Shown piece by piece: positions 199-4,590 of a stretch of 14,872 nt of DNA. Where the stretch lies: positions 1-14,872 of the forward strand of contig QYPA01000124.1 in the NCBI GenBank assembly GCA_007279715.1, given 5' to 3'. Below the pieces are notes generated by a model that saw nothing but the letters and a program-made list of their open reading frames with translations, had not been told where the DNA came from and ran no database searches. The position numbers and the translations under genes are program-made. Position 1 is the stretch's first letter. The number at the start of each line of letters is the position of its first letter. This stretch comes from Comamonadaceae bacterium (GTDB taxonomy: Bacteria > Pseudomonadota > Gammaproteobacteria > Burkholderiales > Burkholderiaceae_C).

Positions 199-639
199 CT
201 AGCGCTTGAAACCAGAGCGCAGCTTGTTGGCAGCAATCTCAATTTGCGCATCCAATTCACCCGATAAAACTGAAGACTGAATCAGCTCAAGCGTAGCTAC
301 AAGTTCTTTGTCGCTGACCAACTCCACTGCAAATTTTCCTTTTGCAAGTTCCAGCAGCCGTGCACCGTAACGCACGCTCAAAGACAGCTTGCGATTTTCT
401 GCTGTGAACCACCACTGCTTGACCCGTTTGCTGGTTTCCACAAGCTTTCGTAGCCCTGTTTCTTTGTCTGTGATGCTGCGCATTTTGACGGCGGAGAACT
501 GTGCTCCTGTTTGTTGCGCTTTGGCTAAATCAATTTGCTCTTGCAAACGTTTGCTCATCTTTTCCCTGCGTAGCTGTACGGGCGAGAAGTTGGTGGGTTT
601 TACAGCTGCGGTGAGCTTGAGGGTTGCGAAATTGGACAT
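199..639 (-). CDS. hypothetical protein, 146 aa, basic/helical; no assignable function
   Basis: ORF 199-645. The second ATG (637-639) lies about 8 nt after an AAAGGAAA Shine-Dalgarno-like run, whereas the first ATG is too close to it. No catalytic motifs recognised. It is divergent from the 1048 gene across a repeat-rich 400-bp region. Confidence 0.7.
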   Translation of the reverse strand: MSNFATLKLTAAVKPTNFSPVQLRREKMSKRLQEQIDLAKAQQTGAQFSAVKMRSITDKETGLRKLVETSKRVKQWWFTAENRKLSLSVRYGARLLELAKGKFAVELVSDKELVATLELIQSSVLSGELDAQIEIAANKLRSGFKR

Positions 640-738
640 GTGCATTTCCTTTCATTTGTTGTGAATGCACAGTGGATTGTGTGATCAAACGCCATTAAGG
701 ACGACCTCTTTCGCGCTGTCTTGTCAGGTCCATGCGAG

Positions 739-830: not shown

Positions 831-858
831 GAGTTGCGATGAGTTGCTAAAGAGTCGC
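831..858 (+). repeat. three direct repeats GAGTTGC / GAGTTGC / GAGTCGC spaced 10-11 bp
   Basis: gagttgcgat gagttgctaa agagtcgctg read directly. They carry the same GTTGC core as the adjacent heptad array. Confidence 0.7.
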
Positions 859-870
859 TGAATCAAAAAC

Positions 871-898
871 GTTACACGTTACTAGTTACAAGTTGCTG
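871..898 (+). promoter_or_regulatory. array of four contiguous 7-bp units GTTRC-NN (gttacac gttacta gttacaa gttgctg); candidate protein-binding heptad array
   Basis: Exact 7-bp periodicity read directly. It is the reverse complement of the motif in the 928-969 array. Confidence 0.65.
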
Positions 899-927
899 TA
901 TTTGGGACAAATGAGAAGCCCTGATTG

Positions 928-969
928 GCAACACGTGACTAGTAACTGGCAACCAGAAACGTGCAACGT
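928..969 (+). promoter_or_regulatory. array of six contiguous 7-bp units GNRAC-NN (gcaacac gtgacta gtaactg gcaacca gaaacgt gcaacgt), inverted relative to 871-898
   Basis: Exact 7-bp periodicity. GYAAC is the complement of GTTRC. Further GCAAC copies lie at 992-996, 1008-1012, 1017-1021 and 1028-1032, running up to the RBS of the 1048 gene. Confidence 0.65.
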
Positions 970-1047
970 CTTTTGATCTCTGTGACTTGGTGCAACCCCT
1001 GCACCCAGCAACCAGCGCAACTCCCACAGCAACTAAAGGAGATTGAC

Positions 1048-1542
1048 ATGCTGACCACCCCTGATACCCACACCACAGATACCACCCATACCACCCCCGC
1101 ACTGGCAGTGCGATTGTTTGATAACCAAAAGTACGGAACCACCTACGGCAAAGGCGTCTATCGACGGGCTTTGTACAACGGCACCGTGGACATCATGCAC
1201 CCCCAAGCCAAGTACTTGATTGATCTGTTCTCCTACCAAGACTGGATGAACCAAGCCCGCACAGACCAGCAAATGGCCGCCATTGACAGCGTACAAGAAG
1301 ACAAAGATGCACTGTTTAGCTGGATACAACGCTATGACCCCAAAAGCAAGAGCAAAACACTGGTGTCAGGCGTGTGCGTGTTCAGTCTTGCCAACATGAG
1401 CCTGCAGATGGTGATTCAAGACGATGCCAGTGACCTATGCAACCACTGGCAACTGGATGTTCGCCACTGCCGCCAAGCCGCCACAAACCAAAGCTCCCCG
1501 CAGTTGTTGGCCACCAATACAGACTTGGAGGTATTCAAATGA
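1048..1542 (+). CDS. hypothetical protein, 164 aa, with Thr/His/Pro-rich N-terminus
   Basis: ORF 961-1542. An internal ATG at 1048 is preceded by AAGGAG (1036-1041) at good spacing. The upstream 29 codons overlap the repeat arrays and are probably not translated. Confidence 0.65.
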   Translation: MLTTPDTHTTDTTHTTPALAVRLFDNQKYGTTYGKGVYRRALYNGTVDIMHPQAKYLIDLFSYQDWMNQARTDQQMAAIDSVQEDKDALFSWIQRYDPKSKSKTLVSGVCVFSLANMSLQMVIQDDASDLCNHWQLDVRHCRQAATNQSSPQLLATNTDLEVFK

Positions 1543-2337: not shown

Positions 2338-2904
2338 ATGTCTCAAGCCAAAACACTGACCCCAGCGGAAATTGATCACCTGCTGACCTACATCGCACAA
2401 CGCAGCTTTGCCATGCGCAATCGCCTGATGTTTTTGACAGGCCTATGGTCTGGCGTTCGCGTGGGAGAAATTGCCAGCCTTAGCGTGGGCGATGTGAGAA
2501 ACGCCGATGGCAGCGTCAAAGCAGAGATACGCTTGACTGCGCAGCAGACCAAGGGACGCCAACCCCGCACGGTGTATTTGCCCCAGAAACTGCGCGATGC
2601 GCTGCAGGAGTATGTTGATCTGCGCAGCACCTGCCCTGCATCCCACCCCTTGTTCATTACAGCGGGGCGCAAGGCATTCACCGCCAATGTGATGTCACAG
2701 CACTTCTTTTGGTTGTTCAAGCGAGCGGGGATTGCAGGTGCCAGTAGCCATTCGATGCGGAGGACTTTTTTAACCTCGTTGGCATCCAAGGGAATCAGTA
2801 TTCGGGTGCTGGCAAGTTTGGCAGGGCACCGTTCGATTCAGGTGACTATGAAATATCTGGATGCATCCGATGACATGAAGCGGCGGGCGGTGGAACTTGT
2901 TTGA
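2338..2904 (+). CDS. small tyrosine recombinase, catalytic domain only (188 aa; FimB/FimE-sized)
   Basis: ATG 2338 follows AAGGAA (2325-2330). The catalytic signature is complete: R in GVRVGE, K in QQTKGRQPRTVYLP, H-x-x-R in HSMRRT, H in LAGHRS and Y in TMKYL. Only ~35 residues precede box I, so there is no SAM-like core-binding N-domain. Confidence 0.85.
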   Translation: MSQAKTLTPAEIDHLLTYIAQRSFAMRNRLMFLTGLWSGVRVGEIASLSVGDVRNADGSVKAEIRLTAQQTKGRQPRTVYLPQKLRDALQEYVDLRSTCPASHPLFITAGRKAFTANVMSQHFFWLFKRAGIAGASSHSMRRTFLTSLASKGISIRVLASLAGHRSIQVTMKYLDASDDMKRRAVELV

Positions 2905-3588: not shown

Positions 3589-4590
3589 TCATGCCAATAG
3601 GTCAGTCTCGCCTGCTACAAACTTTGACCAAATTTCAATGAACCTGGGCTCTGTCATTGCCAACCCTGAAGGCAACCTATTCTTCATCTTGATACGGGTC
3701 TCCAGTTCGTGCTGGTAGTTTTCCCTGAGCCAGGCGCGCCAAGGTGAATCCGCATGTGTTTCAGCGCTGGTGGCTTCCAGATACGCCTTGTGATTCCGCT
3801 TGCCAAAAGGATATTGGATGGGCTCGATCTTGGTGGCATTGGGAAACGAGCCTTGCTCTGCATGCAGCACCATGCGCTGCGCTTTGTAGAGAAACCGCCC
3901 AATGGTGCTTTGCATGCGTTCCACAGGGCTTGTCTGCCTGCTAAAGCGCCAGCGCTCCACATCACGCACATTGAGCCCTGGCGCTGCCTTTAGCCTGTCG
4001 CCAATGCGCCATACCGCGATGTTGGGATACAGCAGTCGATACAGCAAGATCCAGTAGCCCCGTTCCAGCGCGGCGGGTGTCATGCGCTTGGTGTGCAGAC
4101 GCCACCGCGCTTGGCTGCTTGCCAGCACATCCAGCGCCCTGCCTTCATGGTGCTGGCGCAGGATCTCGCGAAACTGGCTCACGATGGTTTGCTGGGTGAT
4201 GGTCAAGGGCACTTCAATCACCACGCTCTTGCCAGCGGGGTAGAACACAAACTCGCCCAAGTTCTGCTCATCCACCAAGCGCACTTTGGCTGGACGCTGG
4301 GCTTCTTCCAGCAGCAAGTAGCCCGTGGTTCGCCACCATTGGCGGAAGTTGTCTTGCGTCAAGTCGCCTGCTTGCGTGAAAGTTATGGCGGTTTGGGGAT
4401 CCACAGGCTCCAGCCCGCTGTGTCTGGCATACCAAAACACGGGGCTCAGGCGCAGATAGTTCCACCACCAGAAGTAAGCCGTGCGCGATGCAGCCTCCAG
4501 CACAGCCTCTTCAGAGGCTCTGGTAAAGCCAGGAATCCCCTTGTAAAAGCCTGTTTGCGGACGCTTCATGCTGGGCACTATAACAATCAT
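3589..4590 (-). CDS. hypothetical Trp/Arg-rich protein, 333 aa (start possibly at Met8, 4569)
   Basis: Long ORF with the motif AYFWWWNYLRLSPVFWYA near the N-terminus. It is divergent from the 4699 gene. No enzymatic motif recognised. The antisense shadow ORFs are rejected. Confidence 0.75.
   Translation of the reverse strand: MIVIVPSMKRPQTGFYKGIPGFTRASEEAVLEAASRTAYFWWWNYLRLSPVFWYARHSGLEPVDPQTAITFTQAGDLTQDNFRQWWRTTGYLLLEEAQRPAKVRLVDEQNLGEFVFYPAGKSVVIEVPLTITQQTIVSQFREILRQHHEGRALDVLASSQARWRLHTKRMTPAALERGYWILLYRLLYPNIAVWRIGDRLKAAPGLNVRDVERWRFSRQTSPVERMQSTIGRFLYKAQRMVLHAEQGSFPNATKIEPIQYPFGKRNHKAYLEATSAETHADSPWRAWLRENYQHELETRIKMKNRLPSGLAMTEPRFIEIWSKFVAGETDLLA

Follow-up and report, generated by a model that had tools for sequence, protein, structure and literature searches.

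The closest architectural analogy to the DNA element described here is the parS site of plasmid pSM19035, to which the omega protein (ParB-pSM) binds cooperatively on at least four contiguous 7-bp units of mixed orientation, four being the functional minimum (PMC9499535). A second geometry is found in the replication origins of Staphylococcus aureus pathogenicity islands (SaPI), where 6-12 penta- or hexanucleotide iterons lie half on each side of an AT-rich centre and run in opposite directions (PMC9371898), and in the core origin of simian virus 40 (SV40), where an AT tract flanks inverted pairs of pentanucleotides (PMC1779811). The element in question is located on a contig of 14,872 nucleotides (C151; 14.9 kb, taken whole and called the window below) from a Comamonadaceae metagenome-assembled genome (MAG) of 1.64 Mb that is 57% complete. 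It occupies the 402-bp intergenic region (646-1047) that fills the gap between the divergent start codons of a DUF6641 gene and the gene for a 164-amino acid protein, p164. Two opposed arrays of the pentamer GTYRC, repeated every 7 bp, are accompanied one-to-one by p164, and we tentatively read the region as the operator of the p164 module.

The preliminary description of this DNA had placed four GTTRC-NN heptads at 871-898 and six GNRAC-NN heptads at 928-969, on either side of a 29-bp spacer and with further repeats on both flanks; all of these coordinates hold. From left to right the region comprises the following elements.

761-774, no strand: near-palindromic block AATTTCGCCAAATT (TTTTGCCAAAA motif in relatives), between a 19-bp palindrome and the AT-rich box
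818-828, no strand: AT-rich box GATAAATATTT, invariant, holding the palindromic -10-like hexamer AATATT (822-827)
831-837, 841-847 and 852-858, plus strand: outer-left copies GAGTTGC, GAGTTGC and GAGTCGC, at 10-11 bp spacing (TTGC-N6-TTGC)
865-869, no strand: A-run bordering the left array, mirror of the T-run at 971-974
871-898, plus strand: inner-left array of four contiguous heptads, GTTAC-AC, GTTAC-TA, GTTAC-AA and GTTGC-TG, starting at 871, 878, 885 and 892 and pointing to the centre
900-912, no strand: innermost dyad ATTTG-GGA-CAAAT, conservation of the central blocks being highest in its right half, ACAAATGAG
928-969, minus strand: inner-right array of six contiguous heptads, GCAAC, GTGAC, GTAAC, GCAAC, GAAAC and GCAAC, starting at 928, 935, 942, 949, 956 and 963 and pointing to the centre
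971-974, no strand: T-run directly 3' of the right array, 4-7 T in relatives
982-1033, minus strand: outer-right copies GTGAC at 982 and GCAAC at 992, 1008, 1017 and 1029, at 9-16 bp spacing, ending 2 nt before the ribosome-binding site (RBS)

Taken together, positions 818 to 1035 or so make up a single large dyad, graded and imperfect. Its heptad unit has the consensus wA-GTTRC-Tn, TRF reports a period of 7 at 871-894, and the spacer between the inner arrays (899-927, 29 bp) is about 58% AT. Polarity is strict: seven of seven GTYRC copies lie left of the centre and ten of ten GYRAC copies right of it. The p164 RBS, AAGGAG, follows at 1036-1041 and the ATG at 1048. The innermost dyad, the mirrored A-run and T-run, the AT-rich box and the outer pair GAGTTGC (831) and GCAACTC (1017), itself an inverted repeat, are additions to the preliminary description. 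The arrays are not chance, because neither inner array pattern occurs once in 200 dinucleotide shuffles of the window and none of the four patterns forms another run of at least three heptads in the 1.64-Mb assembly, where the array is single-copy. This confirms them as real, contiguous, direct and inverted arrays in a divergent control region that reaches the RBS.

With omega/parS the region shares gapless 7-bp units, at least four per block, in direct and inverted orientation and in a promoter location; this likeness implies that each heptad takes up one protein unit and that the units wrap cooperatively around the helix. It differs in that the motif is GTYRC-NN instead of the WATCACW of omega, in that two strictly polar blocks surround a conserved 29-bp dyad where omega has mixed orientations, and in the additional outer copies at 9-12 bp spacing.

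The arrangement is conserved among p164 loci, 23 of which were collected. GTDB species genomes supplied 14 of them and genomes of the same order three; one is a near-identical metagenome contig, two more are metagenome contigs and two are alphaproteobacterial. Because the set includes close relatives, counts over it lack independence, and the Chitinophaga label of one locus (L015) is probably a binning error. The loci span Comamonadaceae, Polynucleobacter and Sulfuritalea together with the alphaproteobacterial Phaeobacter and Sulfitobacter, whose p164 homologues share about 20% identity and are clearly homologous (hhalign 97%). Single-protein scans for close relatives of p164 or DUF6641 returned nothing, so that profile scans were required, and scans for more distant p164 subfamilies returned nothing or loci of the betaproteobacterial type only. 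Upstream of p164 the same order of elements is present in 23 of 23 loci, both alphaproteobacterial ones included: a TAAATA box, GAGTTGC copies, an A-rich run, inward-pointing GTYRC units and the ATTTG-N3-CAAAT dyad, followed on the right by inward-pointing GYRAC or GNRAC units, a T-run and spaced GCAAC copies up to the RBS. Every locus has the A-rich run ahead of the left array, and nearly every one has the T-run straight after the right array. In the alignment the TAAATA columns of the AT-rich box are invariant across 17 loci, the GAGT.GC columns are invariant or almost so, and the CAAATG columns of the central dyad are nearly invariant; L008 and its relatives carry GTTACTGATTTG-AGA-CAAATGAGTAAC, an 11/12 palindrome. 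The AATTTCGCCAAATT block is kept in most betaproteobacterial loci (the window, L005-7, L010/13, L014, L016, L018 and L011).

In a tally of 18 loci the left side of the centre holds about 100 of 101 forward copies and the right side about 165 of 179 reverse copies, and spacing has its mode at 7 bp (29 and 31 cases), with minor modes at 10-11 bp in the outer left and at 9 or 12 bp in the outer right. The check on heptad phase in homologous regions that the preliminary description had set goes against compositional noise: phase is kept, as the 7-bp mode and the polarity demonstrate, and it is the number of units that varies (3-6 left, 3-10 right). Isolate RE-1 carries two near-identical copies of the module on two replicons (L010, OZ248566.1:1422-11850, and L013, OZ248562.1), one of them less than 6 kb from the start of the 651-kb second replicon record; between the two arrays only three positions are changed, all outside the pentamers.

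Purifying selection on the region is base-specific. In eight close locus pairs 7 of 487 fixed pentamer bases (G1, T2 or A4', C5) are substituted (1.4%), compared with 47 of 327 Y/R pentamer positions (14.4%) and 146 of 1177 remaining positions (12.4%, about nine-fold above the fixed bases); in a 97%-identical metagenome contig (L056) the region has three changes, none in a pentamer. Since G1, T2 and C5 are frozen while the spacers change at background rate, this signature, as read from aligned loci, indicates a recognised sequence word at a fixed period and not a conserved helix. At best the two arms are 55-65% complementary without gaps, and with gaps the match comes to 74.5% of aligned positions; their mismatches include 83 transversions, equal to the transitions, and 47 of the G·U type versus 37 of the A·C type, so there is no G·U bias. 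Unit numbers are unequal between the arms (4 vs 6; 3 vs 7). Against a null of permuted units the natural order is slightly more mirror-symmetric (mean z = -0.93, negative in 15 of 17 loci). The RNA fold of 862-976 reaches -41.4 kcal/mol, with z = -5.25 relative to shuffles, because any inverted motif array folds so, and no Rfam family reaches threshold. An RNA hairpin with conserved pairing was rejected, as the permutation, gapless-register and wobble-asymmetry tests gave motif-level symmetry only.

The genes nearest the array are these.

199-645, minus strand: DUF6641 gene (PF20346, phrog_31551), 146/148 amino acids, divergent from p164; a frequent, not obligatory neighbour
1048-1542, plus strand: p164, 164 amino acids, of a small family without Pfam entry, one-to-one with the arrays; candidate binder
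1585-2046, after p164: p153, 153 amino acids, mostly disordered
2338-2904, plus strand: rec188, a 188-amino acid tyrosine recombinase with the catalytic domain only

Beyond rec188 lies a module of a 333- and a 286-amino acid protein (p333 and p286) and a clamp-loader-like AAA+ ATPase. Among all of these p164 is the only gene one-to-one with the arrays, because in some loci the arrays lack a DUF6641, rec188, p286 or AAA+ partner. The linkage is exclusive: the box pattern ATAAATANTTRCGAGTTGCGATGA has nine matches in 596 Gb of species genomes, nine of nine at p164 loci, and none in viral contigs. DUF6641 is commoner than p164 (at least 895 clusters; 26 loci in 15 of 401 genomes), and its loci have arrays only where p164 is also present, at least 20 of them being without any array. 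In L008 and L009 rec188 takes the place of DUF6641 as the gene divergent from p164 and the array is unchanged, and in L012 DUF6641 is downstream of p164 and the array stays with p164. rec188 adjoins p164 and the array in all 17 betaproteobacterial loci with readable flanks; in the alphaproteobacterial loci (6.5 kb each), which carry DUF6641, p286 and AAA+ homologues, none was found in the roughly 3 kb that flank the p164 gene on each side. Several betaproteobacterial array loci, among them an island in a complete genome, lack p286 and the AAA+ gene, and p153 is present in only four of the loci. The preliminary description had named the 146- and the 164-amino acid neighbours as candidate binders; of the two, linkage makes p164 the likeliest, and DUF6641 is disfavoured by its array-free loci. 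rec188 was likewise disfavoured as binder, by the alphaproteobacterial loci and by array loci without the island's 19-bp palindrome. This palindrome occurs at 739-757, about 70 bp upstream, and at 2924-2942, after rec188; the shuffled modules of L008, L009 and L012 are consistent with cassette exchange at these two sites, a view limited by several array loci that have no such palindrome. In the Phaeobacter locus L057 a weak DUF6626 match (3597-3995, E 8e-5) follows the p164 homologue, at the position of p153.

The p164 family is small. Its homologues fall into 48 clusters in a set of 5.8 billion proteins, with 121 representatives among 1.84 billion clusters; no Pfam match was obtained for the family, distant members included, and searches of 72,556 plasmids, 50,697 phage genomes and the IMG/VR viral contigs found no homologue. 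The AlphaFold2 (AF2) model of p164 (predicted local distance difference test, pLDDT, 83) is mostly beta, with eight strands and two to three helices; its confidence is low at residues 29-36, an invariant loop of Gly, Tyr and Lys (YGTTYGKG). Searches of the model against the PDB and BFVD gave no significant match. An uncharacterised phage protein matches it marginally, and a phage single-stranded DNA-binding protein (SSB; Foldseek probability 0.85, TM 0.39) weakly. DUF6641 is strongly basic, with an isoelectric point (pI) of 10.1 and a net charge of +11, and its model (pLDDT 81) consists of a long helix, a five-strand sheet and two helices, without a match in the PDB. Profile searches of p164, DUF6641, p286 and p333 against the PDB gave nothing below E 0.06. 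The suggestion in the preliminary description that a flanking small protein might have a ribbon-helix-helix (RHH), helix-turn-helix or ParB-like fold did not hold: the AF2 models of p164 and DUF6641 contain none of these and have no significant PDB match. Nor does any island protein match an RHH family in Pfam, PHROG or NCBIfam.

Three functions had been proposed at the outset, operator, centromere-like site and origin. The operator is favoured, the origin is retained as its main rival and the centromere is disfavoured, with no ParA in the window and no p164 homologue found on the plasmids or phages searched. In our tentative reading, which stands a little short of an even chance, 818-1035 is a conserved site of nucleoprotein assembly that serves the p164 module as operator and that a protein binds in a polar and cooperative manner, p164 being the likeliest binder. 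We infer a protein ligand on duplex DNA, transcriptional control as the output and p164 as the ligand. The operator reading is supported because the region spans divergent starts, because a promoter candidate lies under the repeats and because the outer-right copies reach the RBS. The candidate in question is leftward, with a -35 element TTAGCA (the reverse complement of 845-850, in the second GAGTTGC), a 17-bp spacer and a -10 element AATATT in the box; in a position weight matrix (PWM) scan it is among the top three in 8 of 17 loci, with moderate scores. A weaker rightward candidate, TTGCTA, has the same -35 position under the outer-left repeats.

In mechanistic terms, a sequence-specific island protein would recognise the pentamer G-T-Y-R-C, with G1, T2 and C5 as its essential contacts, and would occupy the 7-bp units cooperatively and with a fixed direction. 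From both sides, arrays of protein in opposite orientation would then grow inward to the central dyad ATTTG-N3-CAAAT, and the sparser copies, spaced by about one helical turn, would extend the complex outward, on the left over the AT-rich box with its back-to-back candidate promoters and on the right over the leader down to the p164 RBS. Occupancy would set how strongly p164, the recombinase that follows it and the divergent gene are expressed; if p164 itself is the binder, it would be autoregulated. Such a scheme has relatives in parC/ParR of plasmid R1 and in the Rep proteins of iteron plasmids, in which the repeats measure 11-22 bp (all direct in parC) and the binders are RHH or winged-helix proteins. 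There, too, two clusters of short repeats lie at the promoter of the binder's gene and one protein builds the complex and represses its own gene, whereas the window has pentamers, a 7-bp period and mirror polarity.

Several observations pull the other way. The case for p164 as putative binder comes solely from its linkage to the arrays. The p164 model has no match in the PDB below E 0.08 and no recognisable DNA-binding fold, and the median pI of the family is near-neutral, at 6.0. The best profile hit in the PDB, at E 0.06, is telomere end-binding protein alpha, an oligonucleotide/oligosaccharide-binding (OB) fold; together with the phage SSB match this makes two independent, non-significant hits, weak hints that p164 may instead bind single strands through an OB-type fold. 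No convincing promoter for p164 came out of a sigma-70 scan (the PWM scan gave moderate candidates only). Opposed iteron sets around a centre are equally the geometry of a SaPI-type origin (PMC9371898), and the arrays may have some structural role, given the z-score of the RNA fold and the symmetry of unit order.

A bolder form of the operator reading, which we regard as doubtful, would make p164 a new class of sequence-specific nucleic acid-binder, beta-rich and possibly OB-like, that polymerises directionally on GTYRC words spaced by 7 bp. Its two inward filaments, meeting at the ATTTG-N3-CAAAT dyad, would form a self-contained switch (perhaps an origin) of an undescribed family of small islands older than the split between Alpha- and Betaproteobacteria.

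The region is a sharply defined cis element, with motif, phase, polarity, centre and borders, and stands one-to-one with an unannotated protein family. This provides a testable pair of protein and site in abundant freshwater bacteria (Limnohabitans, Polynucleobacter and Rhodoferax) and in the marine Roseobacter group, some of them cultured. If p164 does bind the site, it would represent a new fold for the recognition of DNA or single-stranded DNA (ssDNA) and an unusual reading of 7-bp periods; if the site is an origin, a helicase-less island would be using SaPI-like iteron geometry. Operator or origin, either would explain the control of a widespread and undescribed island family.

The main rival is an origin of the SaPI or, more broadly, phage-inducible chromosomal island (PICI) type, or of the SV40 type, at which an initiator (p164, or p286 with the AAA+ ATPase) would bind the opposed iterons and open the DNA after excision; binding beside its own gene would also autoregulate the initiator. 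The two opposed pentanucleotide sets do match the published SaPI and SV40 geometry (PMC9371898, PMC1779811), with 4+6 inner pentamers, A and T tracts at the flanks, and an AT-rich dyad and box. As with SaPI, the context is an integrase-bearing chromosomal island, here at a tRNA-Phe fragment; p286 and AAA+ homologues accompany p164 even in Alphaproteobacteria, and the weak OB-fold and SSB hints for p164 would be in keeping with a protein that binds specifically the GTTRC strand, on the left as on the right. The machinery, however, does not fit. Scans with Pfam, PHROG and NCBIfam found no helicase, primase or known Rep among the window genes, nor an origin-binding-domain protein, the sole ATPase being the clamp-loader-like AAA+ protein, which together with p286 is absent from several array islands, one of them in a complete genome. 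The central spacer, at just 29 bp and about 58% AT, is much shorter than a SaPI centre, and the site lies upstream of the gene for a beta-rich 164-amino acid protein, in a divergent promoter region, whereas the SaPI origin is downstream of rep. The p164 module is also absent from the plasmids, phages and viral contigs searched, which would be unusual for a replicon module. An origin is therefore unlikely on this evidence.

A single-strand mechanism we hold to be quite unlikely. It would make the p164 leader RNA a hairpin with a U-run attenuator whose GYAAC/GUURC words p164, a ribonucleoprotein- or OB-like protein, binds in the manner of TRAP or HutP, switching the hairpin and masking the RBS-proximal copies; alternatively folded ssDNA would be the substrate. 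The resemblance is considerable, with many short words at fixed spacing in a leader that reaches to the RBS, a stable fold of 862-976, a T-run directly after the right array in nearly all loci and a small beta-rich protein nearby, the near-neutral pI, YGTTYGKG loop and weak likeness to ssDNA binders of which would agree with such a role, as would the slight excess of self-complementarity in the natural unit order. Attenuation by TRAP or HutP needs words in one orientation only. In the window the mirror copy is equally conserved, and the evolutionary signature is one of sequence and not of pairing: arm complementarity is modest in the gapless register, transversions are as frequent as transitions, G·U pairs are not in excess over A·C, spacers change at background rate around frozen G1, T2 and C5, the arms have unequal unit numbers and no Rfam family matches. 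The outer-left copies, moreover, lie under or upstream of the candidate promoters.

Tyrosine recombinases can rely on accessory sites, as in the direct repeats of integron attI and the internal recombination site (IRS) of TnpI, and the heptads might by analogy be an accessory or synapsis site for rec188, extra half-site-like docking units that direct recombination at the palindrome 739-757. The 19-bp palindromes of the island, one upstream of the array and another behind rec188, have GTCGT arms that GTYRC resembles; rec188 has no core-binding domain and adjoins p164 and the array in the readable betaproteobacterial loci; and gene modules are shuffled between loci. Yet the alphaproteobacterial arrays have no rec188 within about 3 kb on each side, the array loci L011, L016, L008 and L053 have no 19-bp palindrome, other copies of the palindrome carry no arrays, and 10-20 accessory sites would be unprecedented for a tyrosine recombinase. 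This explanation is very unlikely.

Highly improbable is an omega-type RHH operator that doubles as a partition (centromere-like) site, as the preliminary description had proposed. From that comparison the cooperative array survives as architecture, with contiguous 7-bp units in runs of at least four, direct and inverted, in a promoter region, and the N-terminal 45 or so residues of p153 could in principle be beta-alpha-alpha. The partners are what is lacking: neither the p164 nor the DUF6641 model shows an RHH fold, p153 is confined to four loci, no gene for a ParA or ParM partner was found in the window, the element is integrated in the chromosome, no homologue was found on the plasmids searched, and the motif is unrelated to WATCACW.

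That the arrays are a compositional or slippage artefact, either a 7-nt microsatellite or a selfish palindrome like the repetitive extragenic palindromic (REP) elements, without function for the island, is barely credible and largely refuted by comparison of the loci: 7-nt tandem arrays are indeed common (GTYRC-NN x4 in 51 of 401 genomes of the order, one genus with dispersed heptad palindromes), but this array is single-copy in its genome, has imperfect units, variable spacers and frozen G, T and C, and keeps its position relative to p164 over the alpha/beta-proteobacterial divergence. The order-wide search for array patterns was dominated by perfect microsatellites and one REP-like family and is uninformative on whether an array predicts p164, and the scan of viral contigs was saturated by GTTRC (at least 120 matches) and by the permuted control alike, its count being equally uninformative. 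The REP-like family belongs to genus g37 (G028 and seven other genomes), which has 10-48 dispersed GTGAC...GTCAC heptad palindromes per genome, in contrast to the window array, unique in a 1.64-Mb assembly that is 57% complete and in this respect unlike REP elements and bacterial interspersed mosaic elements (BIME). Each is an imperfect palindrome of (GTGAC-NN)x4, 30-45 nt and (GTCAC-NN)x4, the same kind of heptad with polarity opposite to that of the window arrays; the copies in L314 (1990-2075), L315 (2010-2110) and L316 (1925-1955 and 2345-2375) lie in short gaps between long open reading frames (ORFs). The permuted-pentamer control showed 7-nt arrays of any kind to be frequent in viral contigs. 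Opposed GTTRC/GYAAC arrays also occur on a few IMG/VR contigs from uncultivated viruses, in L065 (1916-1977), L076 (102-232), L116 (13243-13320 and 13744-13812) and L178 (645-719); L116 has three arrays, two of them directly upstream of minus-strand ORF starts. Neither p164 nor DUF6641 was found in the array-bearing viral contigs.

The window has its relatives in freshwater Burkholderiales, namely Limnohabitans, Rhodoferax and Polynucleobacter. The displaced 3' part of a tRNA-Phe gene lies at 8-52, which places the module in an integrase island at a tRNA-Phe fragment; ARAGORN found no intact tRNA in the window. The AAA+ module is followed by sugar-uptake cargo and then by an integrase fragment at the far end of the contig, and PADLOC assigned the island to no defence system. 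A second DUF6641 gene is present in the same MAG (G000, contig C44:24527-24898; L031), without p164 and without an upstream heptad array. In the 97%-identical metagenome contig (L056, 1222-2807) DUF6641 is followed by a 77-residue ORF and then by ruvB, which suggests that the chromosomal flank past the left end of the window is ruvB.

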